Shown piece after piece: positions 44,538 to 59,999 of a stretch of DNA of 64,000 bases. Source of the stretch: Gemmatimonadaceae bacterium (lineage in GTDB: Bacteria > Latescibacterota > UBA2968 > UBA8231); the NCBI GenBank assembly GCA_026706075.1, contig JAPOZM010000001.1, positions 16,230 to 80,229 of the forward strand, read 5' to 3'. The position numbers were made by a program, and so were the translations under genes. Under the pieces are notes generated by a model that was not told the DNA's origin, did not search any database, and saw nothing but the letters and a program-made list of their open reading frames with translations. Numbering within the stretch: position 1 is the first letter of the stretch; each line of letters begins with the position of its first letter.

Positions 44538-45962
44538 TCAGCTCAGGGCGCGCCAGACGATTGCGACGAGGAAGCAGAGCAGGAAGCCCATGGCCACGGG
44601 CAGCAACGCCGAGACCGTCGTCCACTTGGCGCTCCGGGTCTCCTTGTAGATCGTGTAGATCGTCGTCGAGCACGGATTGTGGACCAGGCTGAAGAGCATC
44701 AGGTTCACCGCCGTCAGCAGGGTCCATCCGCCCGAGGCCAGGATCCGTGCGGTGTCCGCCTCTGAGTCGAGCTCGAACATCACCCCCGCCCCCGCTCCGA
44801 GCTCCGGCGTGCCGACGCTCATGACCGTGAGCATGAGGATCGTTGGAATGATGATCTCGTTGGCCGGGATGGCGATCACGTAGGCCAGCAGGATCACGCC
44901 GTTGAGGCCGATGATGGCGCCGAAGGGGCCGGTGAAGTCGATGAAGTGCTCGGCCAGGCTGGCCTGTCCGACGGTGATGTTGGAGGACAGCCAGATCACG
45001 GCGCCGGCGGGAATGGCGAAAATCACCGCCCGCCACAACACGATGAGGGTGCGGTCGATCACCGAGGTGTAGACGGTGCGCAGGATCTGTGGGGGCCGGT
45101 ACGGAGGCAGCTCGAGGCTGAAGGCGGAGGCCTCTCCCCTGAGCACGGTCCGGGAGAGTGCCCAGGAGACGACGAATGCCAGCAGGATCCCGGTCACGGC
45201 CACGGCCACCACGGAGGCGGCCGAGACCAGACCCGCCAAGTGCGCGGGCACGAGACCGCCGATGAAGATGGTGGCCACCAGGATCTGCGTCGGCCAGCGG
45301 CCGTTGCAGAGGGAGAAGTTGTTGGTGATGATGGCGATCAGGCGCTCCCGCGGGCTGTCGATGACGCGCGTGGAGACGATCGCCGCGGCGTTGCAGCCGA
45401 AGCCCATGGCCATGGTCAGGGCCTGCTTGCCGTGGGCCCCGGCGCGGCGGAAGAGGCCGTCGAGGTTGAAGGCCACCCTCGGCAGGTAGCCGAAGTCCTC
45501 GAGGAGGGTGAAGAGGGGGAAGAAGATCGCCATGGGAGGCAGCATGACACTGATCACCCAGGCCATGGCCAGGTAGATGCCGTCGATGAGCAGACCGTCG
45601 AGCCACGACCACATGCCGATGGCGGCGGCCCCCCCCTTGAGAGCGGGATGGATCGTATCGACGAGCAGGGTCGTCAGCATGGCCGAGGGATAGTTGGCGC
45701 CCTCGATGGTCAGCCAGAAGACCACGGTCAGCATCAGCAGCATCAGCGGGAAGCCGAGCCAGCGGCTGGTCACGAAGCGGTCGATGGTGCGGTCCAGGTC
45801 GAAGCGCCCGCGCTCTCCCTCGCGGGTCACGGCGCGGTCGGCGATGCGGGCCGCATCGGTGTAGATCGACTCGACGAGGTCGTCGTGGAAGTCACGGCCC
45901 GCGTCCCAGCGCAGGGAGCCGGCCCGGGAGAGGATCCTCTCCGTATGCAGTCGCTGCTCCAT
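44538..45962 (-). CDS. FeoB membrane (permease) domain protein, separate ORF
   Basis: C-terminal 474 aa of ORF 44538..46988; ATG 45962. ...[26 protein letters not shown]... aligns by eye with the start of the membrane part of the full-length FeoB at 18798..20960. Polytopic. Confidence 0.85.
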
Positions 45963-46792
45963 CAACTGACCTCCAATCGTGCCTGACCCGCCTCTGAGGC
46001 AGCCCGCGCCAGGTGACGCCCGAGGTCGGCGATCTCCCCGGAGCGCACGGCCTCGACGATTCGCGGGTCCCCCTCCAGCAGCCGCAGAGCCACCCAGCGC
46101 CCGTTCGGCAGTCCGGGATAAGCGGTCTCCACTTCGGCCATGAGCTCCTCGACGGCGGCCTTCAACCCCTGGGGCGGCTCGACCCGGTGCGGCCTGCACA
46201 CGGACCGTCCCGTGGCCACGTCGGCCACCGCCTGCAGCAGCTCCGGGATGCCCTGGCCCCGGCGGGCCACGGTGGGCACCACCGGCACGCCGAGGTCGCG
46301 GGCCAGACGCCGGTCGTCGACCACCATGCCCCGGCGCTCTCCCTCGTCCATGAGGTTCAGGCAGAGGACGGCGCGGTCGGTGATCTCCAGCACCTGGAGG
46401 ACGAGGTTCAGATTGCGCTCCAGCAGGGTCGCATCGACGACGATCACGGTCACGTCGGGGCTGCCGAAGAGGAGGAAGTCCCGCGCCACCTCCTCGTCGT
46501 CGCTGGTGGAGAGGAGGGAGTAGGTCCCGGGCAGGTCGACCAGCTTGTAACGGCTCCCTCCATAGCCGAAGCCGCCTTCGGCGCGCACCACGGTCTTGCC
46601 GGGCCAGTTGCCGGTGTGCTGCCGCAGCCCCGTGAGGGCGTTGAAGACCGTCGTCTTGCCGGTGTTCGGGTTCCCGGCCAGGGCCACCACGAAGTCCCAG
46701 TTGTCCATGTTCACGCCGAGCCGGATCAGGTTGGCGGCGTGATGGGCGGGACAGGCCTCGCAGGCGCCCGCGGCGGCGGGTCTCTCTGTCAT
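45962..46792 (-). CDS. FeoB N-terminal GTPase (G plus helical) domain protein, separate ORF
   Basis: In ORF 45962..47779; ATG 46792. ...[22 protein letters not shown] (G1), VDLPGTYSL (G3), NLMDE. The stop TGA shares one nt with the ATG of the membrane ORF (TGATG). Confidence 0.85.
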
Positions 46793-47802
46793 TTCGATTT
46801 CTTCTCCACCTGGATATGCTCGGCCTGCTGCCGGCGCAGGGCGACCGTCGCCCCCCGCACCTGGTAGGCCACGGGGTCGCCGGTGGGGCTGACCATCTCG
46901 GCGCACACCTCGGTCCCCGGCAGAAGTCCCATGTCCAGCAGCCGCCGGCGCTCCAGGCCCCGGCAGGCCGGCGAGATGCGCACCACACGGGCCCGCTCCC
47001 CCCTGGCCAGCTCGTCCAGGCTGTCGTACGGCCCCGGCATCTCCCCCTCCACCGGGTGCACGAAGACGTTGCCCGCCACCACCGGCGGCAGGCTGTGCGG
47101 CCGGCCGTCGGCGATCAGGCGGATCTCTTCGTCGCCGGCGCTCACCAGCTGCACCCGGATGCCCGGATAGAGGCCGGCTTCGGTCAACTGGCGGAAGACC
47201 TCCTCGGGCTCGTCCTCGACATGCTCGATGCGGGCCAACTCGCCCTCCTGGAGGGCCGGCAGCGCGACCGTCTGCGGCGGCGGCACCTCCCCTTCGGCGG
47301 TGGGGATCGGGTCGCCGTGGGGATCGTAGGCGGGGTGACCCATCTCCTGGGAGAGCCTCTCCGTCTCCTCGGCCGAGAGGTGATGCTCCCGCCTCTCCGC
47401 CTCCTCGTGCCATCGGGAACGGCTGACGCCGGTGCGCTCGGCGAGGTAGCGCTCCCAGAGCCGGTGGATACGCACCATCCGCAGCGCCTCCTCGCGGCCG
47501 TCGCGAGTCAGCGCCATGCCGTGCTCGAGGGTCGAGACGAGGCCGAGGGACTCCAGGCGGATGAGGACGCCGGCGGCCCGGCTCCGGGGCACCTCGAGGG
47601 CTCCGGCGAGGCTCTCGACGCTGGCCGTCCGCTTCTGGTACTCGCAGTCGTAGAGATGCTTGAGCCCGTCCTCGACCAGGATCCGCTCCCCCATCCCCCG
47701 CAGCCGGCGCCACCGGCGCACCCAGCCGCGCCCGAGCCACAGGAGCAGGGCGAGAGCGGCGGCCAGGACGGCCGCCCAATAGAGAGGGGTTGATGATTCC
47801 AT
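46789..47802 (-). CDS. DtxR-type metal regulator fused to an N-terminal TM helix and two FeoA domains
   Basis: ORF 46789..47802, ATG start. [19 protein letters not shown] helix. ...[43 protein letters not shown]...[12 protein letters not shown] is a DtxR HTH plus dimerisation region. Then two FeoA-like segments (...[11 protein letters not shown]... and ...[27 protein letters not shown]...). ATGA overlap with the feoB G-domain gene. Confidence 0.75.
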
Positions 47803-48907: not shown

Positions 48908-49849
48908 TCAGTGGTAGTGGAGGATGGGGCGGATGGCGGCTTCCACCTCGGCGGCCACCTCCGGCGGCACCCGCGGGTTGAAGGGGCCCCCCTCGCCGCC
49001 CTCGATGTCTTCGAAGCCGCCCAGGTGCATCGCCTCGACGACGGCGGAGTAGTTGTAGCGGCGGTCGTCGCGGAAGCGGATCTCCTCCAGCGGCGCCAGC
49101 TCCTCCTCGACCATGCGGGCGCGCTCGTAGTCGCCGCGCCGCTGGGCGTTGTTGATCTCGTCCGAGGCCCTGGCGAAGACCACGTTGATTCCCGAGGTGT
49201 GGCCCCGGGCTCCCTCCTGAGCCGGTCCCGTGCTGCGGTCGCCGATCCCCCAGATGACGATGCCGGCGCCGTCCCGGACGCCTTCTACCATTGGTCTCAC
49301 GTCGCCGGGGCGGGTACCGATCTTGACCCCGAGGAAGTGGGCCGAGTCATTCACCAGGCGCAGGGCCGTGGGCGCCTGGTTGGACTGGCGCAGGTAGTAG
49401 AGGAAGCGGGCCCCGTGCTCGCCTCCGAGCCGCTCGGCGAGGGCCATGTAGCCGTGGTAGATGCCCTCCGGATCGGCCACGCCGGTCAGCGGCATGATCA
49501 GGTAGGCGTCGGGCGGGTTCGCGAGCCGGCACTGGGCGGCGATGAGCCGCTCGGCGTCGGCCTGCGGGTTGGGCGCCACCCCGGAGATGAAGATCCCCCT
49601 GCCCGCTACCCGGGCTGCCGTGAACTCCATCAGGTTCAACTGCTCGTCCGTGTCGATGTGGTGGACGAGGCTGGTGCCGGCGATGGAGACCACGCGGGCG
49701 CGATCCCCCTCCAGCAACTTGGTGCCGAGTAGGTACTCGATGTTCCTCCCGTGGGCCTCGTAGTCGATCCGCCCGCCCCTGAAGGGGACGATGGGGATGG
49801 AGATGACGGTGTCGAGGGCGTCGATCAGATCTTCGGTGCTCAGGGGCAT
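48908..49849 (-). CDS. dihydrodipicolinate synthase/N-acetylneuraminate lyase (DapA) family protein, divergent
   Basis: ORF 48908..49849, ATG start. IPIVPFRGGRIDYEAHGRNIEYLL...FISGV...GVKIGT follows the DHDPS-fold layout, but the GxxGE motif is degenerate (AGTSLV). It is the last gene of the BMC operon strand run. Confidence 0.55.
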   Translation of the reverse strand: MPLSTEDLIDALDTVISIPIVPFRGGRIDYEAHGRNIEYLLGTKLLEGDRARVVSIAGTSLVHHIDTDEQLNLMEFTAARVAGRGIFISGVAPNPQADAERLIAAQCRLANPPDAYLIMPLTGVADPEGIYHGYMALAERLGGEHGARFLYYLRQSNQAPTALRLVNDSAHFLGVKIGTRPGDVRPMVEGVRDGAGIVIWGIGDRSTGPAQEGARGHTSGINVVFARASDEINNAQRRGDYERARMVEEELAPLEEIRFRDDRRYNYSAVVEAMHLGGFEDIEGGEGGPFNPRVPPEVAAEVEAAIRPILHYH

Positions 49850-49928: not shown

Positions 49929-51029
49929 TCAACGATCCACCCGGAAGGGGGACATCTCCCGGCCCGGGTCGCCCCTGGTGATCCACCGGGCGAGGACCCG
50001 CCCCGTGAGAGGCCCCATGAGGATGCCGTTTCTGTAGTGGCCGGTGGCCGCCCAGAGGTTGTCCGCACCAGGCACGGGGCCGATGAGAGGGCGACCCTGG
50101 GGGGGCTTGGGGCGCAGGCCGGCGCGCTGTTCGCGCAGGACCGGGGGTCGGGCGAGAACCCGCCCGCACAGGGCCGACAGCTCCTGATGCGCCGCCGGTG
50201 TGGTGCGGGCGTCGAACCCGGTCTCCTCGACGGTGCCGCCGACGAGCAGGCCTCCCGGGGCCGGCAGCACGTTTCCCCCGGAGCAGCGGAGCACGTGGCG
50301 TACGGGACCGCCGGCGAAGAGACAGCTCTGACCTCGTACCGGCCGCACCCGCAGCCGCCCCGCCGCCGGGCCGTCGAAGTCCGCGGACCAGGATCCGGCG
50401 GCGATCACCGCGGCATCGAAGGTGGCTCGCCTGGAACCGCCGCCCTCGTGCAGGTCGCACTCCACCCCGCCGGGCGCCGGGCGCAGGCCGCCGACGGCGA
50501 CGCCGAAGCGGAACCGGGCGCCCCTGCCCTCGGCGGCGCGCTGCAGGACCGATGCCAGAGTCGGCGGGTCGACCCGCTGATCGCCGGGGTAGAAGGCGGC
50601 CCCCGCCGCCGACTCCGACAGGGCGGGTTCGGCCTCCCGCAGCCGGCCCTCTTCGAGCCACTCCCCCCGGACGCCGCGGGACAGGTTCTCCTCCAGGCGT
50701 GAGCGCAGCGCCTCGGCCTCCCCCTCATCGAGAGCCAGATCCAGTCCCCCCAGGGGCCGCCAACCCGCATCCAGGCCGGTCTCCTCGCGCAGCTGCCCGC
50801 TCAGCCTCTCATGCAGGGAATGGGCGTCGCGATAGAAGGAGGAGAACGGGTCCTGCCCCCCGGTGGGCCGGGTCAGGACCCCGAGGGAGGCCCGCGTCGT
50901 GACCGAGGGGGACGAGTCCCGGTCGGCGACGACCACGGAGACCCCCGAGCGGGCGAGATAGTATGCGGCCGAGCGTCCGACGATGCCGGCGCCGGCCACC
51001 AGGACCCGGGCGCGGTTCCCGGCGCTCAC
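49929..51029 (-). CDS. FAD-dependent oxidoreductase (DAO / glycine oxidase ThiO-like)
   Basis: ORF 49929..51029 (GTG start). RVLVAGAGIVGRSAAYYLARSGVSVVVADRD dinucleotide fold and C-terminal ...ATGHYRNGILMGPLTG... Confidence 0.8.
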   Translation of the reverse strand: MSAGNRARVLVAGAGIVGRSAAYYLARSGVSVVVADRDSSPSVTTRASLGVLTRPTGGQDPFSSFYRDAHSLHERLSGQLREETGLDAGWRPLGGLDLALDEGEAEALRSRLEENLSRGVRGEWLEEGRLREAEPALSESAAGAAFYPGDQRVDPPTLASVLQRAAEGRGARFRFGVAVGGLRPAPGGVECDLHEGGGSRRATFDAAVIAAGSWSADFDGPAAGRLRVRPVRGQSCLFAGGPVRHVLRCSGGNVLPAPGGLLVGGTVEETGFDARTTPAAHQELSALCGRVLARPPVLREQRAGLRPKPPQGRPLIGPVPGADNLWAATGHYRNGILMGPLTGRVLARWITRGDPGREMSPFRVDR

Positions 51030-51047: not shown

Positions 51048-52253
51048 TCAGCCTCCGGCCGCGGGCCTGCGAGCGGCCACGATGGGCGGCAGATGGGTCA
51101 CCGGACAGCCCCGGGCTCCACGCACGGAATAGCCCATGTCGCCGAGGACGCAGCCGATCTCCGACTCGAGGCGAAGCAGGTAGTCGCGCTCCTCGGCGCT
51201 CAGCACGGTCCGCGGCGGACCGGCGTCGAAACCGCGCACGGCGACCCCGGTCCTGAATCCCTCGGGGAAGTTGACCCCCTGCAGCATGAGGTTGATCAGA
51301 GGCAGGAGGCGGTACTGAAGCTCCCTGGCCCGCTCCAGGTCTCCGGCGACGGCGCGGTCGTAGAGCTCGACGATGACCTCGGGGACGATGCCGGAGGTGG
51401 CGGTGGTGCCGCCGTTGGCGCCCATGACGATCGACGGGAGCAGGATCTCCTCACAGCCGTTGAGCACGACGTAGTCGGGCCGCTGCGGGCGCAGGCGGTG
51501 CATGGTGTTGAGGATGCGCGGCAGGTCGCGGCTGGAGTCCTTGGTGCCGAAGATGCGCTCGAAGGCGAGGAGCCGCTCCATCGTGTCGAGGGGCAGCTCC
51601 TGGGTGAACTGGGGGATGTTGTAGAGCAGGATGTCGAGGGGCGAGTGGCGGGCGATCTCGGCGAAGTACTCGTAGAGGCTGGTGTCGGAGATCCTGTAAT
51701 AGTAGGGCGGCACGAGGGAGATGGCGTCGGCGCCGAGGTCGGCGTAGTACCCGGCCATCTGCAGCACGTCGCGGATGTTGGCCTCGCTGGCGCCCGCGAG
51801 GATCGGCACCCGCCCCTGGTTGACCTCGGCAATGAGCCGCACCACGTCGCGCCGCTCCTCGCTGGAGAGGCGCACGAACTCGCCCGTGCTGCCGTTCGGG
51901 TAGAGACCGTGGATGCCGGCCTCGATCAACCACGCGATGTAGCGCTCCATCTTGCCGTAGGAGATGCCCCCCTGGTCGTCGTAGATGACGATGTTGGCGG
52001 TGAAGATGCCGCTGAAGCGGCGGCTGCGCTCGGTCCCGCCGGGAGACGCGGCCACGCTGGAGGGAGGGTCTTCCGGCCGGGGGTCCGGCCCGGCCACCGG
52101 GCGCAGCACGACCTCGATCCCCCGGGCCCGCAGCAGGTCCCTGGCGGAGGGTGTGAGCTTCGAGCCCGGCGAGATCTCCACCTGTCCGTCGTCCTCCCCG
52201 AGGCGGGTCTCGAGCAGTTGGGCGGTGACTACGGGATCATCGATGCGGACCAT
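51048..52253 (-). CDS. DapA/NAL-family class I (Schiff-base) lyase with a roughly 95-aa N-terminal extension
   Basis: ORF 51048..52253, ATG start. The core carries PNGSTGEF (GxxGE), LLYNIPQFT and FGTKDSS (Lys context). It is preceded by MVRIDDPVVTAQLLETRLGEDDGQVEISPGSKLTPSARDLLRARGIEVVL plus a Pro-rich linker. Confidence 0.8.
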   Translation of the reverse strand: MVRIDDPVVTAQLLETRLGEDDGQVEISPGSKLTPSARDLLRARGIEVVLRPVAGPDPRPEDPPSSVAASPGGTERSRRFSGIFTANIVIYDDQGGISYGKMERYIAWLIEAGIHGLYPNGSTGEFVRLSSEERRDVVRLIAEVNQGRVPILAGASEANIRDVLQMAGYYADLGADAISLVPPYYYRISDTSLYEYFAEIARHSPLDILLYNIPQFTQELPLDTMERLLAFERIFGTKDSSRDLPRILNTMHRLRPQRPDYVVLNGCEEILLPSIVMGANGGTTATSGIVPEVIVELYDRAVAGDLERARELQYRLLPLINLMLQGVNFPEGFRTGVAVRGFDAGPPRTVLSAEERDYLLRLESEIGCVLGDMGYSVRGARGCPVTHLPPIVAARRPAAGG

Positions 52254-52264
52254 GCCTGTGTCGC

Positions 52265-53416
52265 CTAACCGTGGGGCAGGCGCATCTCCATCTCTTGATA
52301 GGGCAGGTGGATGGCGTGAGCGGCGACCAGCTCCCCGTAGGGGCCGGCCGTGTGCCTCGCGACCTCGAGAGCTGTGTCGACAGCCCCCGTCTCTCCGCGG
52401 ACTACGCAGGCGGTCAGGAAGTAGCCAACCTTGTAGCGGCCCTCGTAGGTCACGTCGGCGTGCTTGAGCATCTCGTCGAGGGCCTTGACGAGACCGGCGG
52501 TGGTGCGCGTCTCCACCAGACCCAGGGCGCGGCCTGCGAGGGTGCGCGCACCGGGAGACTCGCCGGCCCGGGCGAAGCAGGCCACCACTTGCGGATCCGG
52601 ACCGCTGATCACCACCTGCCCCTCCAGCTCTGCGGTCTCACCGGCCCTTCGGGCGCCCTCGGCGACGGCGGCGCCGACCTCGTCCAGGGATCCGGAGGCG
52701 ATGGCCGCCACGCGGCCCCCGCTGCCGATCGTCAGCCGCGCCAGGTCGACGCGCCCTCCCTTCACCATGCCGTCGACGGCGGCCACCGAGCCCGCGTACC
52801 CCGTGGCCTCGACGATCCCGAGAGCGGCCGCGGTGCGTGGGTCGCCCGGGGGAATGGAGGGCAGCAGGACGCCCACTTCGGCCTCCGGTTGGGGCAGCAC
52901 GAGGGCGCCGTGGAACTCCCCCGCCCGCCGGGCCGCCCCTTCCCCGGCCCGCACGGCCGCCTCCACCGCCCCCACCGAGCCGCTGACGGTGGCATGCACC
53001 AGGGCGCCGCCGATGAAGGCCCAGCCGTGGAGCTCGACGGCGCCGGCCTTGACCATGGCGTCGGCGGCGGCGGCCAGGGGGACCAGGCCCCGCGTCTCCA
53101 GGAGGCCGATGGCCTGGAGGCCGGGCCTGGGCTCGAGAGGGGCGCCGAGGTGCGGCATCGGCTCGAGGGCGCCGGAGTCGGCCCCCGGTACGAGGGCCGC
53201 CGTGATCACCTCTCCGTGGGCGGCGGCCGCCTCCCGCCCCGCGTCGAGGGCGGTGCGCGCGTCGGCCGTGGAGCCTTCGACGATCACGGTCAACCAGCCG
53301 GAGCCGATACCGTGGCGTCCCCCCAGGCGCACCGAGGCCGCCTTGTGCATCGAGTCGAGGGCCGCCGCCAGAGCCGTCATGCCCCTGACCTCCAGGATGC
53401 CGAGGGCACGTTCCAT
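52265..53416 (-). CDS. BMC shell protein with four tandem BMC (PF00936-like) domains
   Basis: In ORF 52265..53506; ATG 53416 (ATGA overlap). Four domain openings sit in one frame with no stops: ALGILEVRGMTALAAALDSMHKAASV, AIGLLETRGLVPLAAAADAMVKAGAV, ALGIVEATGYAGSVAAVDGMVKGGRV and ALGLVETRTTAGLVKALDEMLKHADV. Each is followed by about 60 aa of the fold. Confidence 0.85.
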   Translation of the reverse strand: MERALGILEVRGMTALAAALDSMHKAASVRLGGRHGIGSGWLTVIVEGSTADARTALDAGREAAAAHGEVITAALVPGADSGALEPMPHLGAPLEPRPGLQAIGLLETRGLVPLAAAADAMVKAGAVELHGWAFIGGALVHATVSGSVGAVEAAVRAGEGAARRAGEFHGALVLPQPEAEVGVLLPSIPPGDPRTAAALGIVEATGYAGSVAAVDGMVKGGRVDLARLTIGSGGRVAAIASGSLDEVGAAVAEGARRAGETAELEGQVVISGPDPQVVACFARAGESPGARTLAGRALGLVETRTTAGLVKALDEMLKHADVTYEGRYKVGYFLTACVVRGETGAVDTALEVARHTAGPYGELVAAHAIHLPYQEMEMRLPHG

Positions 53417-53994
53417 CAGCCTGCCCCGGCGGCCGGACGGAAGAGGAGGAAGGCCCGCAGCACCGCCGGCAGGGGGCGCGGGATCACCGCCGCTGCCATG
53501 AACCACTCGCTGCCGCCCAGTCTCTCCCGGCCGCGGCCGATGGCCTGTTCGACGGCGTCCACGGTGCCGGTGATCAGGCTGCAGACGACGCGGTTGTGCA
53601 CCGTGAGGACGTTGGCCACGGCCACATCGGCGGCCTTCGCCATGGCGTCGTTCACCTCCACGTGGACGCCGTACCCCCGCGTCTCGATCAGGCCAAGGGC
53701 GCCGGCCTCGATCTCACCCGCGGGAAGGGGGCAGCCGACGAAACCGGCGCACTCGGGCTGAGGCTGATCGAGGCAGGCTCCGACCACGTGGCCGGTGACG
53801 GCGCCGGCCGCCGCCTCGCCTGCGCGCAGGGCGGTGCTGACGTCTCCGAGGGGCCCGCGCAGGAAGAGGGTGGTGAACCCGCCGATCGACTCCCATCCCA
53901 TCAGCTCGACCCGCGCCGCCTTGCAGGCGGCGTCAGCGCCGACGACGATACCCGCGACTCCTTCGACCTCGATCATCCCCATGGCGTCGGACAC
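53416..53994 (-). CDS. BMC shell protein, tandem-domain (BMC-T-like)
   Basis: C-terminal part of ORF 53416..54600; GTG 53994 chosen (an ATG at 53982 is also possible), with GAGGA upstream. AMGMIEVEGVAGIVVGADAACKAARV... and ALGLIETRGYGVHVEVNDAMAKAADV... Confidence 0.85.
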   Translation of the reverse strand: MSDAMGMIEVEGVAGIVVGADAACKAARVELMGWESIGGFTTLFLRGPLGDVSTALRAGEAAAGAVTGHVVGACLDQPQPECAGFVGCPLPAGEIEAGALGLIETRGYGVHVEVNDAMAKAADVAVANVLTVHNRVVCSLITGTVDAVEQAIGRGRERLGGSEWFMAAAVIPRPLPAVLRAFLLFRPAAGAG

Positions 53995-53999
53995 GGCTT

Positions 54000-54482
54000 T
54001 CAATCCTCGTTCAGCCGGCGAATGATCTCGTCGGTCAGACGCTGCACGAGCGCCTCTTCCTCGCGGTCGGCGGCGGCGCGGCGATTGCAGCCGCCGCAGC
54101 CGCCGTTGGGCCGTCCCGCCGCCTCGGCCCGGTACACGGCGCACTCGGAGCAGGAGGAGGGCTCCACGAACCCGGAGCCGAACTCCTCGGTCTTGCAGCC
54201 GTAGGGGCGGTCGGGGTGATCGCAGCGTCCACGGGCCAGGACCCCGCCCTCGGCGCCGGGAGGCAGCACCTCGGGGACCGCCTCCGCCGGCGCCGGTCCG
54301 AATCCGCCCCGTCCGGTGGACTCTCCCCGGGTCAGCCGCACCCCGTGGCCGCGCAGGTAGTCCCACCCGGTGGGCGTCACCACCGCCTCGGTAGCCACCG
54401 ACACCTCCTTTTGGCCCGCGTGGCGGGCGCGCAGGATCTCCCCGGTGACGACCGTTTCGGAGATGTGCAGCCGACCAGCCAC
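54000..54482 (-). CDS. BMC-associated Cys-rich protein with C-terminal encapsulation-peptide-like helix
   Basis: ORF 54000..54482 (GTG start). N-terminal ISETVVTGEILRARHAGQKEVSVATEAVVTPTGWDYLRGHGVRL. Cys cluster RCDHPDRPYGCKTEEFGSGFVEPSSCSECAVYRAEAAGRPNGGCGGC. C-terminus EEALVQRLTDEIIRRLNED. Confidence 0.65.
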   Translation of the reverse strand: MAGRLHISETVVTGEILRARHAGQKEVSVATEAVVTPTGWDYLRGHGVRLTRGESTGRGGFGPAPAEAVPEVLPPGAEGGVLARGRCDHPDRPYGCKTEEFGSGFVEPSSCSECAVYRAEAAGRPNGGCGGCNRRAAADREEEALVQRLTDEIIRRLNED

Positions 54483-54577: not shown

Positions 54578-55291
54578 TCAAGGCCGGCTTCCTCCGCCAT
54601 CCTGCTTCTCCAGCACCACCTTCCCGGCGTTCACGAGATCCACGGCGTTGCCTTCGTCGGTGTCGACGTGGACCTCCAGCTTCGAGGCGGCGTCGACGCG
54701 CACGATCACGTCCTCGAGGGCTCCCGGCTGACCGCTGTCGACGACCAGGCGCATGCGATCTCCCGGGGCGACGCCGTAGAACGACGCCTCCCCGGGGTTC
54801 ATGTGCACGTGGCGCGCCGCCCGGATCACCCCCTGGCGCATCTCCAGGCCGCCGGCGGGCCCCACGAGGTAGCACCCGGGCGAGCCGTCGATGTGGCCGC
54901 TGAGCCGCACCGGGGCATCGATCCCGAGAAAGCGCGCGTCGGAGAAAGCGAGCTCTACCTGGCACGCCTCGCGCAACGGCCCGAGGACCCGCAGGTTGGA
55001 GATCATCTGCTTGCGCGGCCCGAAGATGGCCACCGTCTCCTCGGCGGCGAAGGCGCCTTCCTGGTACAGGGGCTTCAGGACGGTCAGCTCGGCGCCGCGA
55101 CCGAAGAGAGTCCGCAGGGCGCCCTCGTCCAGATGACAGTGGCGGGCGGAGATGTTGGCGATCAGGCGAGGGGCCCCGCTCCCGGGACCGGCATCGACAA
55201 CGGGACGGCCCGGCCGGCTGCGAAGGAGGGACTGGCGAACCAGCGCTTCGACCCGGGACCTGTCGACGGCGGCGACCACCTCTCCCCTCAC
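54578..55291 (-). CDS. pduL: phosphate propanoyl/acyl-transferase PduL (PTAC)
   Basis: ORF 54578..55291 (GTG start, GTGA overlap). Both PduL repeats are present (ISARHCHL and RAARHVHM). N-terminal VDRSRVEALVRQSLLRS is an amphipathic helix. Confidence 0.85.
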   Translation of the reverse strand: MRGEVVAAVDRSRVEALVRQSLLRSRPGRPVVDAGPGSGAPRLIANISARHCHLDEGALRTLFGRGAELTVLKPLYQEGAFAAEETVAIFGPRKQMISNLRVLGPLREACQVELAFSDARFLGIDAPVRLSGHIDGSPGCYLVGPAGGLEMRQGVIRAARHVHMNPGEASFYGVAPGDRMRLVVDSGQPGALEDVIVRVDAASKLEVHVDTDEGNAVDLVNAGKVVLEKQDGGGSRP

Positions 55292-55605
55292 CCGGCCCCT
55301 TCTGCGACGCGTCCCAGATCGAGGCGCTCGCCGTCGGCGCTCAGTCCTTCGAGGATGGCGACGATGGCGGCGTCGGTGGGAACCGCACCCAGCTCGGGGG
55401 CGGTGCGCGCCGAGCTGCCCATGACGACGAGGACGATCTCCCCCGTGCCGGCGCTGACGGCGTCGACACAGACGAGCTTGCGGCCGGTCGAGTGGAGCCC
55501 GTCGGGGCGCACGGTGAGAACCTCGGCGAGGAGCAGCCGGCGGCCCGACAGGTTGTCGAGCTTGGCGCTGGCCACCACCGGACCCTTCACCTGGGCGAGG
55601 AGCAT
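55288..55605 (-). CDS. BMC pentamer vertex protein (EutN/CcmL family), copy 1
   Basis: ORF 55288..55605. MLLAQVKGPVVASAKLDNLSGRRLLLAEVL...VCVDAVSAGTGEIVLVVMGSSAR...PTDAAIVAILE. Confidence 0.85.
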   Translation of the reverse strand: MLLAQVKGPVVASAKLDNLSGRRLLLAEVLTVRPDGLHSTGRKLVCVDAVSAGTGEIVLVVMGSSARTAPELGAVPTDAAIVAILEGLSADGERLDLGRVAEGAG

Positions 55606-55608
55606 CGA

Positions 55609-57033
55609 TCAGGTGATGCGGAAGTAATCCACCAGGGCGCAGCGGCGCCGGCGGGTGAAGGTGCGGGCCGTGGTCAGGCCCTCGCCGGTGGGACCGGCGA
55701 TTGAGTAGGTGGAGAACCCTTCGCCGCCGACACCGAGACCGGCATAGGAAGGACCGTTCTTGACGAAGACGGTGGTGTCCACGGCGCGGGCCATGTTGTG
55801 CATGCTCTCCACGTTCCGGGAATGGATCATGGCGGTGTGCCGGTAGCCGTGCTCGGACTCCACGGCGGCGCGGATGCCCTCGTTCACGTCGCGCACGCGC
55901 ACGATGGGCAGAAACGTCATCATCTGCTCCACCGTGACGAAGGGATGGTCGGCGCCGGTCTCACCGATGAGCAACCGCACCCGGTCGTCGAGCTCGAGGC
56001 CGATGGCCCGGCTCAGGACGTTGGCATTGCGGCCGATGAACTCGCGCCCGGGGTGAGGCTGCCCGTCCCCCCCCCGGGGGAGGGCGGCCCTGGTCAGGGC
56101 GTCGACCTGACCCGTGTCGAGCTCGACGGCGCTGTAGGCGACCATCTCCGCCTTGAGGTCATCGGCCACGTCGTCGACGACGAAGCACTGCTTCTCGCCG
56201 ATGCAGAGGATGTTGTTGTCGAAGGCGGCGCCGTCGACGATGTCGCGCGCGGCCTTGCGGATGTCCGCGGTCTCGTCGACGACGACGGGGGGATTCCCGG
56301 GGCCGGCGACGATCGACTTCTTGGGGCTGGCGAGGGCGGCTCGGGCCACGGCAGCCCCGCCGGTGACGAGGATGACCCGGACCCCTCGATGGTTGAACAG
56401 CTCTCCGGCGCTATCGATCGTCGGCTCGGCGATGCAGGCGATCAGGTTCCCCGGTCCTCCGGCGGCGGCGATGGCGTCGTTCAGCAGTTGCACGGAGTGA
56501 GCCGACACCCCCTTGGCCCCGGGGTGCGGGTTGAAGACGACGGAGTTGCCCGCGGCGATGATGCCGATGGCGTTGTTCACCAAGGTCGGCACGGGATGGG
56601 TGGAAGGGGTGACGGCGCAGAAGACGCCGTACGGCGCCATCTCCTCAACCGTCAGGCCGTGGTCCCCCGTCCAGGAAACCGCCTCGAGATCCTCGACCCC
56701 GGGGGTGAGATCGGCCGCCAGATGGTGCTTCTGCACCTTGTCCTCGAAGCGGCCCATGCCGGTCTCTTCGAGGGCCATGCGCGAGAACGTCTCGGCGTGA
56801 TCGCGGGTCGTCTGCCGGATCGCCTCGACGATCTTGCGCCGCAGCTCCAGGCTCTCGTCGACAAGGGCCCTCTGCGCCCGGCCAGCGGCGGCCACCGCCT
56901 CGTCGGCGGAACGGAACAGCCCGGACCCGGATCCGCCCACGGACGAGGGGGCCTGGGCGGACTCGGACCCGACGACCTGCTGCACCACCTCCTCGACGAT
57001 GCGGCGGACCCGCTCTTCGCTCACCTTGGACAC
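55609..57033 (-). CDS. CoA-acylating aldehyde dehydrogenase (PduP/EutE type) with N-terminal encapsulation peptide
   Basis: ORF 55609..57033 (GTG start). SEERVRRIVEEVVQQVV followed by a Gly/Ser linker. NPHPGAK, GPGNPPVVVDETAD and FDNNILCIGEKQ (catalytic Cys context). Confidence 0.9.
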   Translation of the reverse strand: MSKVSEERVRRIVEEVVQQVVGSESAQAPSSVGGSGSGLFRSADEAVAAAGRAQRALVDESLELRRKIVEAIRQTTRDHAETFSRMALEETGMGRFEDKVQKHHLAADLTPGVEDLEAVSWTGDHGLTVEEMAPYGVFCAVTPSTHPVPTLVNNAIGIIAAGNSVVFNPHPGAKGVSAHSVQLLNDAIAAAGGPGNLIACIAEPTIDSAGELFNHRGVRVILVTGGAAVARAALASPKKSIVAGPGNPPVVVDETADIRKAARDIVDGAAFDNNILCIGEKQCFVVDDVADDLKAEMVAYSAVELDTGQVDALTRAALPRGGDGQPHPGREFIGRNANVLSRAIGLELDDRVRLLIGETGADHPFVTVEQMMTFLPIVRVRDVNEGIRAAVESEHGYRHTAMIHSRNVESMHNMARAVDTTVFVKNGPSYAGLGVGGEGFSTYSIAGPTGEGLTTARTFTRRRRCALVDYFRIT

Positions 57034-57043
57034 GTCGGTCCCG

Positions 57044-57310
57044 TCAGATGCCGGCGGCGCTCTTGAGCTTGTCGATGGGACGCGGGATCACATGCACGCT
57101 GCGCAGCTCCCCCACGCCCTGGGCAGCCTGGGCACCGGCGTCGACTGCTGACTTCACCGAGGCCACGTCCCCCTCCACCACAACCGACACCAGGCCTCCG
57201 CCCACACGCTTCTGGCCCGCGTAGCGGACGTCCGCCGTCTTCAGCATCGCGTCCAGCGCCTCCACCGCCGCCGCCAGACCCCGCGTCTCCACCATGCCGA
57301 GAGCACTCAT
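57044..57310 (-). CDS. BMC-H hexamer shell protein
   Basis: ORF 57044..57310. [59 protein letters not shown]...VHVIPRP. Confidence 0.9.
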
Positions 57311-57323
57311 GGCCGTCTCCTCC

Positions 57324-57881
57324 TCAGCCCAGGTACAGGGAAAGGACCGCTTCGGACGGACGGGCGATAACGTGGCGCGTCAGGAGCTCGCCCACGCGCT
57401 CCGCTGCCTCCGCGCCGGACGTGACCGCCGACTGCACGCTGCCCACGTCCCCGGTTACGAGGACCGAAATGTAGCCGCCTCCGATCTCCTGCACGCGGAC
57501 GACCTCCACCTCCGCCGCCTTCTCCATGGCGTCGGCGGCCTCGATGACCCCCGTAGAGCCGCGGGTCTCCACCATGCCCAGGGCGCGGACCCCGCTCACC
57601 TCCCCGCCCCCCTTCGATGGCAGGATCACCCCCAGCTCGGAATGAGGCCGGGGGATCACGTGCACGGCGCGCACCTCCCCGACCTTCGACGCCTCCTGGG
57701 CGCCGGCGTCGACCGCCGACTTCACGGCCGCCACGTCGCCGCCGCAGAAGAGGGTGGTCATGCCCGAGCCCACCCGGTCCCAGCCCAGCAGCTCCACCTT
57801 CGCCGCTTTGGATATCGCGTCTCCCCCGGCGATGAGGCCCGTGAGCCCCACGGTCTCCAACATGCCCAGAGCCTCTGTCAT
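57324..57881 (-). CDS. BMC shell protein, fusion of two canonical BMC domains
   Basis: ORF 57324..57881. [26 protein letters not shown]...VHVIPRP, then [26 protein letters not shown]...RHVIARP. Confidence 0.9.
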
Positions 57882-58168
57882 TTCTCTCCTGCCTGCTCAG
57901 AAGCGGTATCGATGTGAACCCGGTCGACTCGCCCGATGATGGCAGCGTCGGCCGGAACCCCGTCCTCGAAGGCGTTGCATGCCTCCCGGGAGACCTCTAC
58001 GACGACCAAGTCTCCCTCCGCCATGGGCTGCCAGCCGACGGCCACCTCCGGATCGCCCACGCCCCTCAACTCGCCGTCCACGTCCTGCACCAGGTGCAGG
58101 CTCTTGTCGCGGTACGGCTCGACTGTCCGCGACAGGACCACCTGGCCGAGAACGCGGGCGAGCTTCAC
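57878..58168 (-). CDS. BMC pentamer vertex protein (EutN/CcmL family), copy 2
   Basis: ORF 57878..58168 (GTG start, GTGA overlap). MKLARVLGQVVLSRTVEPYRDKSLHLVQ...PADAAIIGRVD. Confidence 0.8.
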   Translation of the reverse strand: MKLARVLGQVVLSRTVEPYRDKSLHLVQDVDGELRGVGDPEVAVGWQPMAEGDLVVVEVSREACNAFEDGVPADAAIIGRVDRVHIDTASEQAGEK

Positions 58169-58425
58169 GGCGCCCCTTCGGGGCCGTCGACGATACCCAC
58201 GACGACGCTGCGCACGGGAGGGAACTCCAGGCCCGTCACCTCGCTGCCGGCGGCGCCCGAGTCGGCCACCAGGACGCGGCAGCCGGGACCGGCGCCCACG
58301 GCGTCGACCGCCAGCTGCAGGGCGGCGTCGCCGTCGCCGTCGTCGACGACCAGGATCCGGCGGCGGTCGAGGGCCGGATGGCGCTCATCGGCCACGACGC
58401 TGCCGATGACCCGCGCCATCCTCAT
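58165..58425 (-). CDS. BMC pentamer vertex protein (EutN/CcmL family), copy 3
   Basis: C-terminal end of ORF 58165..59307; ATG 58425 (ATGA overlap). MRMARVIGSVVADERHPALDRRRILVV...AVDAVGAGPGCRVLV...SVVVGIVD. Confidence 0.75.
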   Translation of the reverse strand: MRMARVIGSVVADERHPALDRRRILVVDDGDGDAALQLAVDAVGAGPGCRVLVADSGAAGSEVTGLEFPPVRSVVVGIVDGPEGAP

Positions 58426-58724
58426 GCGGCAGCCTGGGCGAAGCGACGGCCTCCGGAGCTCACCGCGTCGACGATGCCCACCAGAACGGCATCCACGGGC
58501 AGGTCTCCCATACCCGGGCACTGACGGGCCGAGCTGCCTTGCACCAGGAGCACGACCTGGCCCTGGCCGGCGCCCACGGAGTCGACGCAGACCAGGTGCC
58601 TGCGCGTGGGAAGGGCCTCCTCGCCATCGACGGTGAGCAACTCCACGAGCAGCAGTCTCCGGCCCTCGAGAGCGGCGGCCTTGGCCGAGGCCACCGCCTG
58701 CCCCTTGACCCGCGCCAGGACCAT
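58422..58724 (-). CDS. BMC pentamer vertex protein (EutN/CcmL family), copy 4
   Basis: ORF 58422..58724. MVLARVKGQAVASAKAAALEGRRLLLVELL...VCVDSVGAGQGQVVLLVQGSSAR...PVDAVLVGIVD. Confidence 0.85.
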   Translation of the reverse strand: MVLARVKGQAVASAKAAALEGRRLLLVELLTVDGEEALPTRRHLVCVDSVGAGQGQVVLLVQGSSARQCPGMGDLPVDAVLVGIVDAVSSGGRRFAQAAA

Positions 58725-58730
58725 CTCGCC

Positions 58731-59999
58731 TCAGGACACGGCCGCGGGCTCGTGCAGAGCCAGGTTCCTGAGTCCGGCCCGGATGTCGTCGCCGTCGTAT
58801 CCGTAGTACCCGGCGATGCGCTGGACCACGTCGTCCATGAGCACGTCGGGGCAACTGGCGCCGGAGGTGACCACCAGGCGGGCGGGCAACTCCTCCGGGA
58901 GCCACATCCCGGTCTCGACGACCTCCTTCCGGTGGATGTCGTAGTGACGGATGCGCTCGCGGGAAAGAAGGTCGCCGGCCGAACCGATCAGGTAGCTCGG
59001 CATCACCCGTTCGCAGATCTCCACCAGATGCGAGGTGTTGGAGCTGTTGTAGCCGCCGACGATCACCGCCAGGTCCGGTTCGCTGTCGAGGAGCGCCCGG
59101 GTGGCGTTCTGGTTCCAGTTGGTGGCGTAGCACAGGGTGTCGGCCGTATCGGCAAAGTGACGGTCGAGATCCTTGGAGCCGTAACGCTCGGCCATGGCGT
59201 CGCGGAGGATGGCGGCCACCTCCTTGGTCTCCTCGGCGAGCATCGTCGTCTGGTTGACGACGGCCACCCGCGACAGGTCCCGTTCGGGGTCGAAGCCCTC
59301 CGACCACTTGCCCTCGAAGACCTCGCGGAACTCGCCGACACCGGTCCGGCCGGTGATGAAGGCGGCCACGCTCAGCGCCTCCTCCCGGTCGAGGACGACA
59401 AGGGTCCTGCCGTACTGCTGGGTGTGGGAACGGGTGGCCTGCGTCTCCTCGTGCCGGTACTTCCCGTGGATGATGATCGTGTAGCCCTCGCGGGCGAGCT
59501 CCTCGCCGCGGGTCCAGACCTTGGAGACGAAGGGACAGGTGGTGTCGTAGTGCTCGCGAAACTCCTCCGACGCGGTGTCGATGCCGCTGCGCTGCAGGGA
59601 ATCCTCGATCTCCCGCGTCGTCCCGAAGGCCGGTATCAGGACGACGTCGTCAGAGGAGATCTCCTCTTCGGAGACGAGGCGCTCCCCGTTCTGGTCGTGC
59701 ATGAAGCGGACCCCGCGGCCTTCGAGGTCGTCGTTGACCAGGGGGTTGTGGATGATCTCGCTCACCAGGTTGAACCGCTTGTCGGGATGCCGATCCATGG
59801 CGGAGAAGGCCATGTGGATGGCCCGCTCCACGCCGTAGCAGAACCCGAAGTGGCGTGGGACGAGGACTTCGAGCCGTCCGACGGTCAGGCGGGTCGGCGC
59901 CAGCGAGCGCTTGCCCTCGTTCTCCCGGAAGTCCTTGATCCGCTGAATCACGGGGCCGGCGTAGTGATTGGGCACCCGATCGAACTGCTTGAAGGCCAT
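58731..59999 (-). CDS. ispH: 4-hydroxy-3-methylbut-2-enyl diphosphate reductase (long form)
   Basis: C-terminal 422 aa of ORF 58731..60677; ATG 59999. HFGFCYGVERAI, TTCPFVSKVW and GGYNSSNTSHLVE. Confidence 0.9.
   Translation of the reverse strand: MAFKQFDRVPNHYAGPVIQRIKDFRENEGKRSLAPTRLTVGRLEVLVPRHFGFCYGVERAIHMAFSAMDRHPDKRFNLVSEIIHNPLVNDDLEGRGVRFMHDQNGERLVSEEEISSDDVVLIPAFGTTREIEDSLQRSGIDTASEEFREHYDTTCPFVSKVWTRGEELAREGYTIIIHGKYRHEETQATRSHTQQYGRTLVVLDREEALSVAAFITGRTGVGEFREVFEGKWSEGFDPERDLSRVAVVNQTTMLAEETKEVAAILRDAMAERYGSKDLDRHFADTADTLCYATNWNQNATRALLDSEPDLAVIVGGYNSSNTSHLVEICERVMPSYLIGSAGDLLSRERIRHYDIHRKEVVETGMWLPEELPARLVVTSGASCPDVLMDDVVQRIAGYYGYDGDDIRAGLRNLALHEPAAVS

Follow-up and report, generated by a model that had tools for sequence, protein, structure and literature searches.

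Introduction

Bacterial microcompartment (BMC) shells have been described as assemblies of hexamers, pseudohexameric trimers and pentamers, and the main text of Sutter et al. (2021, Nat Commun 12:3809) defines the trimeric component, BMC-T, as a fusion of two pfam00936 domains. Chains with four fused domains are flagged in a single sentence of that study, in Supplementary Data 2, where the locus type 'MUF2 - 13 loci' is credited with 'very unusual' proteins worded as 'linear fusions of BMC-H domains'. The entry gives no oligomeric model, no obligate pairing with a two-domain gene and no structure. Here we analyse a protein of this kind, designated Q, together with the two-domain protein T encoded next to it, on a 64,000-nucleotide stretch of contig JAPOZM010000001.1 (assembly GCA_026706075.1, positions 16,230 to 80,229) from a Gemmatimonadaceae bacterium placed by GTDB in the Latescibacterota. 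This whole stretch is referred to as the window, and positions are counted from its first nucleotide. We propose that one T and one Q may together close a single hexagonal shell tile.

The MUF2 entry also records an uncharacterised protein that has six conserved cysteines and shares its N-terminal domain with a pfam00701 class I aldolase encoded nearby, as well as Ts_hazel proteins of 194 and 187 amino acids in MUF2 Gemmatimonadetes loci (Sutter et al. 2021); T is 194 amino acids long. The window operon fits this description gene for gene. In common with the MUF2 loci it has an aldehyde dehydrogenase (AldDh), a phosphotransacylase (PTAC), a triplet of BMC-P pentamer proteins, a two-domain protein (T, a candidate for the catalogue's 'Ts_hazel' class, as Q is for H_blurple), the six-cysteine protein and the pfam00701 aldolase, and Q shares with the MUF2 proteins four fused BMC-H-like domains in a Gemmatimonadetes-type locus. 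Q almost certainly belongs to the MUF2 family, with no difference in kind. It is a further member of a catalogued, uncharacterised family, so that the sighting is not new and it is the architecture that had been left unexplained. A full-text literature search for four-domain BMC proteins returned no paper besides the Sutter et al. supplement, the name 'MUF2' was confined to that paper and its preprint, the searchable literature held no published structure or mechanism for a four-domain protein, and no solved structure among the PDB matches had more than two BMC domains per chain. An earlier reading of the window, made from the letters of the DNA (the sequence-only reading), had taken BMC-H and BMC-T to be the only described building blocks of this fold; this agrees with the main text of Sutter et al., which does not mention the four-domain type, but not with the supplement that catalogues it.

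Characterised shell proteins offer partial parallels. Natural BMC-Ts proteins (PduT, 3N79/3PAC; HO BMC-T1, 5DIH/6N06) resemble Q in being multi-domain PF00936 chains that build pseudohexagonal tiles and break six-fold symmetry, but they have two domains per chain, three chains per tile and a different placement of successive domains. Mixed BMC hexamers are also known, for example the CcmK3/CcmK4 heterohexamers (PMC6788708; Sommer et al. 2019, as cited in PMC6787980). These and other BMC-H heterohexamers are, like the tile proposed here, products of more than one gene, the genes being adjacent; they consist of single-domain chains in variable stoichiometry, whereas the proposed tile would have a fixed 1:1 ratio and a fixed order of six domains. 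The BMC-Tdp proteins CsoS1D and CcmP provide a precedent for stacked discs, although their domains are permuted, unlike those of Q, and their two discs are separate trimers held together non-covalently. The best structural match to both Q and T is 6NER ('Synthetic Haliangium ochraceum BMC shell'; template modelling (TM) score 0.82-0.91, 36-42% identity), which contains an engineered protein in which BMC-H domains that occupy neighbouring positions of a hexamer are joined head to tail. That protein is synthetic and has two identical domains that form symmetric trimers, whereas the four domains of Q all differ and cannot by themselves complete a ring.

A conserved chain of four BMC domains

Q lies at 52265..53416 on the minus strand and consists of tandem, non-permuted BMC (PF00936) domains in a chain of 383 amino acids. 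Its frame is unbroken from ATG 53416 to the stop at 52265-52267. Pfam assigns PF00936 to four separate parts of the chain (208.4 bits, gathering cutoff 24.5, E 1e-62), and a family-specific domain hidden Markov model (HMM) delimits four domains at approximately residues 4-88, 102-186, 198-283 and 297-383, corresponding on the minus strand to the approximate coordinates 53153-53407 (Q1), 52859-53113 (Q2), 52568-52825 (Q3) and 52268-52528 (Q4). The open frame, Pfam and the HMM count of four together bear out the claim of the sequence-only reading that a single polypeptide contains four complete BMC domains, and the uninterrupted 383-residue translation agrees with its statement that no stop or frame change separates them. 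The common opening pattern that it described, ending in glycine, is found in the first three domains (ALGILEVRG, AIGLLETRG, ALGIVEATG) but not in the fourth (ALGLVETRT), which ends in threonine. Likewise, the linker length of 15-25 amino acids that it gave is close to the ~20-25 amino acids that lie between the final strand of each domain and the opening strand of its successor, whereas the part that is unstructured in the AlphaFold model covers just 10-15 amino acids.

Upstream of its start codon the Q frame remains open as far as an in-frame GTG at 53506. ATG 53416 is the credible start and is preferred, because it overlaps the stop of the upstream gene and because homologues are 382-387 amino acids long. 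The junction sequences of the T stop and Q start are gcaggcTGATGgaa and gcaggcTGATGgaacgt. Membership of the BMC superfamily follows from the PF00936 match above the gathering score and from the best PDB sequence and fold matches, all of which are BMC shell proteins. Within the superfamily, the four domains in 383 residues set Q apart from BMC-H proteins, with one domain in a chain of ~90-100 amino acids, and from BMC-Ts proteins, with exactly two PF00936 domains per chain. Nor does it resemble the circularly permuted BMC-Tdp and BMC-Tsp proteins, since each of its domains is collinear with PF00936 positions 1-75 (Pfam); the strand-helix order in every domain of the AlphaFold model is E-H-E-E-H-E, as in BMC-H. 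As a building block Q is indeed unusual, as the sequence-only reading had held.

The four-domain arrangement is widely conserved. A search of 5.8 billion proteins yielded more than 120 clusters of 366-404 amino acids with 93-100% query cover and 46-92% identity to Q, the named clusters coming from metagenome-assembled genomes (MAGs) of Gemmatimonadota and Latescibacterota. When domains were counted with our own HMM in 120 of the listed homologues, 118 had four and the remaining two were truncated. Complete four-domain open reading frames (ORFs), 51 in all, were recovered from independent genome and metagenome contigs, and the closest public relative, at 97% identity, lies on OZ220089.1, the chromosome of a MAG labelled Candidatus Latescibacterota.

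This conservation bears on whether the gene could be an artefact, namely a mis-assembled repeat or a pair of BMC-T genes fused by a frameshift. In a few metagenomic relatives Q is split, as 2+2 domains in locus L113, 3+1 in L123 and 1+3 in L132; these are probably frameshift or sequencing errors in single low-coverage contigs. A collapsed or expanded repeat can be ruled out without read mapping, because the Q domains of the window have diverged to 27-37% mutual identity, the longest DNA repeat inside the gene is 45 nt at 73% identity, the GC content is even across the operon (0.69-0.75), and the family is conserved across clusters and loci. Given that 51 independently assembled loci have a complete ORF and that more than 120 clusters agree in length, an artefactual origin is so improbable as to be negligible.

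The two-domain gene T accompanies Q

T (53416..54000, minus strand, 194 amino acids, two PF00936 stretches by Pfam) is the gene directly upstream of Q, and its TGA stop overlaps the Q ATG by one base (TGATG). To gauge how constant this arrangement is, ORFs were called and BMC domains counted in every related locus. The loci were supplied by an alignment-based metagenome scan; the peptide patterns used in a scan of a genome collection with the single Q protein were too specific, so that 4 of the loci retained were true family members and the other 76 were BMC loci of unrelated kinds, mainly from cyanobacteria. A two-domain BMC gene stands directly upstream of Q in all 43 loci with enough upstream sequence, the window included, across Q identities from 97% down to 46%; near-duplicates occur among them, so that they do not amount to 43 independent lineages. 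Contig ends cut the other 8 loci; in 7 of them the last part of an upstream BMC gene remains at the contig edge. The distance from T stop to Q start was estimated at -32 to +17 nt and is mostly -1 or -8. In the reverse direction, T homologues were sampled down to 52% identity, and a BMC gene of ~385 amino acids comes after every one of the three.

The association persists where other shell genes are missing from the flanks shown. In two contigs (L153 and the P0240 contig) the module comprises T, Q and a DHDPS-family aldolase, and the upstream flanks contain a peptidase and unknown genes in one case and an Rce1-like gene in the other. This trio thus stands apart from other shell and core-enzyme genes in some genomes (L153, 4001-6937; the P0240 contig), in the manner of a satellite module.

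T also has conserved cysteines. C140, on the pore-proximal strand of T2, is invariant, and a cysteine within the D-A-A-C-K edge motif of T1 is the majority consensus; the T sequence of the window has further cysteines in the linker between T1 and T2. These residues might form a metal or cluster site.

Six diverged domains in a periodic array

Within a genome, the six domains T1, T2 and Q1 to Q4 are mutually 24-40% identical, and each class is 55-66% conserved across genomes. Their starts are evenly spaced (n=42): 96.2 ± 0.8 codons from T1 to T2, 97.2 ± 2.5 from T2 to Q1 across the gene boundary, 98.4 ± 1.2 from Q1 to Q2, 96.4 ± 1.1 from Q2 to Q3 and 98.6 ± 1.3 from Q3 to Q4. The pair reads as one periodic array of six units of ~97 codons that is broken once. 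Within Q, the Q2-Q3 junction exceeds the other junctions in neither length nor variability, and the model is at least as confident there as at the others. We considered whether Q might be a fusion of two BMC-T units, in which Q1 would pair with Q3 and Q2 with Q4, and found no support for this, as the identity matrix lacks such an alternating pattern.

The edge-lysine motif D-x-x-x-K is invariant in all six domains across 75 Q and 73 T sequences (in Q, D21/K25, D119/K123, D215/K219 and D314/K318), and its presence in every domain fits a role at in-plane facet edges. In contrast, the corner motif (I/V)PRPH is degenerate in all T and Q domains, those of the window Q reading VPGAD, LPQPE, ISGPD and IHLPY; in the operon it is canonical only in H, a single-domain BMC-H protein, and in U1, the first domain of a second two-domain protein, U. 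The pore loops of the six T and Q domains are all different, both in the window (GGF, HNR, GSGW, GGA, SGGR, GYF) and in consensus (sIGGf, tVhnRV, giGsGW, fIGGaL, IgSGGR, KVGYfL).

T and Q also diverge together. Across 27 genomes with all four shell proteins, the correlation between the pairwise distances of T and those of Q is r=0.92, the highest value of any pair of shell proteins, against 0.76 for T-U, 0.70 for T-H, 0.88 for Q-U, 0.77 for Q-H and 0.83 for U-H. The partial correlation of T with Q, given U and H, is 0.82. T correlates with the first half of Q at 0.92, and the two halves of Q with each other at 0.87.

Predicted structures resemble consecutive BMC-H protomers

AlphaFold2 models were obtained for Q (75 homologues) and T (73 homologues). 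The predicted local distance difference test (pLDDT) score is 94.1 for T, with a predicted TM score (pTM) of 0.91. The Q model appears rigid, with a pLDDT of 92.7, linkers at 78-89 and a pTM of 0.90, a value which says only that the four-domain arrangement is well defined. In a Foldseek comparison with the PDB, the sole working two-domain superpositions of both models were with 6NER, annotated there as 'BMC-H tandem fusion protein'. Q superposes on it with TM scores of 0.87-0.91 (target-normalised) and root-mean-square deviations (RMSD) of 2.0-3.6 Å, and T with TM scores of 0.83-0.87 and RMSD of 2.9-4.6 Å. Against the natural BMC-T proteins PduT and HO BMC-T1, a single domain of either model aligned (TM ~0.4, RMSD 15-17 Å; for Q, TM ~0.41 and RMSD 15-16 Å), so that neither model shows the BMC-Ts arrangement. 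Because both superpose on 6NER and not on natural BMC-T, T and Q are predicted to have one common connectivity, that of consecutive BMC-H protomers, in line with the phrase 'linear fusions of BMC-H domains' used by Sutter et al.

A proposed T+Q tile and its alternatives

We propose that one T chain and one Q chain make up a pseudohexamer that is heterodimeric and fully asymmetric, in the order T1-T2-Q1-Q2-Q3-Q4; in our judgement this proposal has an even chance of being correct. Q would be a MUF2-type metabolosome shell protein that does not close a tile alone. One Q, with four domains, and one co-translated T, with two, would lie side by side in a single hexagonal pseudohexamer, and translational coupling would supply them in a 1:1 ratio. 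Such a tile would have no internal symmetry, because each position would be taken by a different, separately evolving domain, and it would present six different edges and a central pore lined by six different loops. It would be a special tile in a shell built mainly of H, U and three pentamer proteins, and could act there as a unique directional gate or docking site, possibly for the DHDPS-type aldolase and the six-cysteine protein. A dedicated role of this kind is suggested by the unique pore, the edges and the linkage to these two proteins. While the four domains and their conservation, the obligate adjacency and coupling of the genes, the periodicity and the placement of two consecutive domains side by side as in BMC-H are direct results of the analysis, we infer both the sharing of one ring and any function that follows from it.

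Several considerations weigh against this proposal. Adjacency and coupling are equally expected for two shell proteins of one operon that assemble separately. The Foldseek evidence extends to at least one consecutive pair of Q domains being hexamer-like, without saying which, and a planar arc of 240 degrees goes beyond it. Past fusion of tandem BMC-H genes could have left the ~97-codon periodicity behind. Co-divergence supports the pairing of T with Q but is confounded by common phylogeny and similar evolutionary rates. Covariation between domain positions, assessed as mutual information with average product correction to compare the Q2|Q3 interface with Q1|Q2 and Q3|Q4, gave no signal at an effective number of sequences of ~49, the block correlations being driven by column variability. 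Finally, the listed homologues of Q (at most 404 amino acids) and of T (at most 212 amino acids) include no T-Q fusion, which is at best neutral.

The sequence-only reading had arrived at a different architecture, arguing that four domains require three chains, or 12 domains, arranged as two pseudohexamers that are either stacked, with (Q1Q2)x3 on (Q3Q4)x3, or stapled side by side; T would then form its own trimer. Its starting point stands, in that four domains cannot close a ring of six and that Q alone first reaches a multiple of six at twelve. Natural stacked double discs exist (BMC-Tdp, and CcmK2 dodecamers among the PDB matches), the high pTM is compatible with a fixed stacked arrangement, the T model looks like a self-sufficient two-domain unit, and the lack of fusions between T and Q is in keeping with separate tiles. 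Nonetheless, we consider this arrangement unlikely. The known stacking tiles are circularly permuted, whereas the Q domains are collinear with PF00936 and have the BMC-H order. Twelve Q domains leave unexplained why T is constantly found next to Q, even without other shell genes nearby. The Q2-Q3 linker, which would be the tether between discs, is not longer, more variable or less confidently modelled than the linkers within each presumed pair, and the domains do not alternate in identity as Q1 with Q3 and Q2 with Q4. The in-plane version would in addition require non-cognate contacts (Q4|Q1, Q2|Q1 and Q4|Q3) between domains that are 27-40% identical. The specifics of the 12-domain architecture are probably wrong, because the obligate two-domain partner encoded in the coupled gene next door was overlooked; its broader point, that the shell architecture is an unusual one, holds.

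The partner of Q might also be sought elsewhere in the operon, its ring being completed by two H, by one U or by a promiscuous mixture, with T forming a separate tile. The genes of H and U belong to the operon of Q, and BMC-H paralogues cross-assemble promiscuously in other systems (PMC12058022, PMC6788708). This appears improbable, since the constant companion of Q is T, also where no H or U is nearby, and the co-divergence of Q is far stronger with T than with U or H; H and U are, furthermore, much more conserved and canonical, as expected of bulk facet proteins. Least probable among the structural alternatives, and in our view quite remote, is that Q forms no closed hexagonal tile at all but open arcs, strips, tubes, an internal scaffold or a lid. 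The degenerate PRPH corner arginine motif in every T and Q domain, which would imply non-standard contacts between tiles, is what speaks for such a role. Partial degeneracy of the corner motifs is also seen in natural BMC-T proteins, which counts against it, as do the edge lysine motif that is invariant in every domain and a consecutive-domain geometry matching that of adjacent hexamer protomers.

If the T+Q tile proves correct, it would be the least symmetric building block known and would add a fully asymmetric class of tile to the BMC-H, BMC-T and BMC-P scheme. Its six individually evolvable edges and its pore of six loops could provide for directional placement within a facet, a highly specific conduit or unique cargo docking, and shell engineering would gain a natural scaffold with six separately addressable positions made from two genes. 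The T-Q pair also provides a way into what the uncharacterised MUF2 organelle does; this organelle occurs widely among Gemmatimonadota and Latescibacterota sampled in marine and sediment metagenomes.

Other multi-domain BMC chains

An exhaustive HMMER search of 1.84 billion representative proteins gave 3,837 hits, and domains were counted in the best 150. Among these were one full-length four-domain representative plus fragments and at least 14 complete three-domain chains of 283-330 amino acids; five- or six-domain BMC chains were absent from the best 150 of the 3,837 matches. On several contigs, two different three-domain BMC genes of 292 and 288 amino acids are adjacent with a 4-nt overlap (L157, 5126-6867; L158, 2893-4634). 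This 3+3 pair is an independent example of coupled multi-domain genes that sum to six.

A natural hard-wired 2+4 pseudohexamer might accordingly be one case of a wider, undescribed rule by which multi-domain BMC chains sum to six, as 4+2, as coupled 3+3, or as single three-domain chains that are presumably dimers. We hold this generalisation tentatively and would give it somewhat less than an even chance. It is weakened by the fact that, among three-domain proteins, summing to six cannot fail, because 3 divides 6.

The settings of the three-domain genes vary. The genes around the 3+3 pair encode an SSF transporter, a prepilin-like N_methyl protein and a BNR_2 protein, and no other shell genes lie near it. 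Single three-domain BMC genes (L160, 952-1818, 288 amino acids, Ca. Calescamantes; L164 and L165, 3501-4352, 283 amino acids) are found in a conserved context in which the BMC gene is followed by guanylate kinase and CoaBC flavoprotein/DFP genes, a housekeeping setting far from any BMC locus.

The operon around T and Q

All genes of the operon are on the minus strand. In the direction of transcription they encode two BMC-P proteins, U, H, the aldehyde dehydrogenase, a third BMC-P protein, the phosphotransacylase, the six-cysteine protein, T, Q, the PF00701 aldolase, a DAO oxidoreductase and a second DHDPS-like protein. The Pfam matches behind the MUF2 assignment are PF00171 for the aldehyde dehydrogenase, a metabolosome core enzyme (55609..57033), PF06130 for the PduL-type phosphotransacylase (54578..55291), and PF03319 for the three BMC-P pentamer proteins (55288..55605, 57878..58168 and 58165..58425). 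The last of these matches covers residues 295-374 of a 380-residue ORF at 58165-59307, that is, its last ~85 codons, and the true start of the gene is probably near 58425.

The six-cysteine protein (54000..54482, 160 amino acids, no Pfam match) is encoded between the shell genes, and its stop abuts the start of T. Its N-terminal ~50 residues are 32% identical (E 4e-4) to part of the ~80-residue N-terminal extension of the DHDPS-family (PF00701) class I aldolase encoded directly downstream of Q (51048..52253), as described for MUF2; this common domain might serve in targeting or in docking to the shell. The pfam00596 class II aldolase found in the main or a satellite locus of MUF2 did not turn up in the ORFs scanned from 40 to 64 kb of the window. 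Further downstream are the FAD-dependent oxidoreductase (PF01266, DAO; 49929..51029) and the second, more divergent DHDPS-family protein (48908..49849; PF00701, E 7e-9). A DHDPS-family gene directly follows Q in L153 and the P0240 contig as well; in two further loci (L154 and L155) it lies two genes downstream of Q, and a DAO oxidoreductase (PF01266) gene is again found after Q.

H (57062..57322, 87 amino acids) is a canonical single-domain BMC-H protein with the IPRP corner motif that is 85% conserved across genomes, and U (57324..57881, 185 amino acids) is the second two-domain BMC protein. Among their three domains, identity is 45-56% in the window and averages 50-59% over genomes, and conservation from one genome to another is 77-85%, with a canonical IPRP(H) corner motif in H and U1; both proteins look like bulk facet components. 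Most related loci repeat the order of the pair (57062-57881), a two-domain gene and then a one-domain gene. Downstream of the BMC operon, at 44538-47802 on the minus strand, lies an unrelated ferrous-iron uptake cluster consisting of an iron-dependent repressor/FeoA fusion and FeoB.

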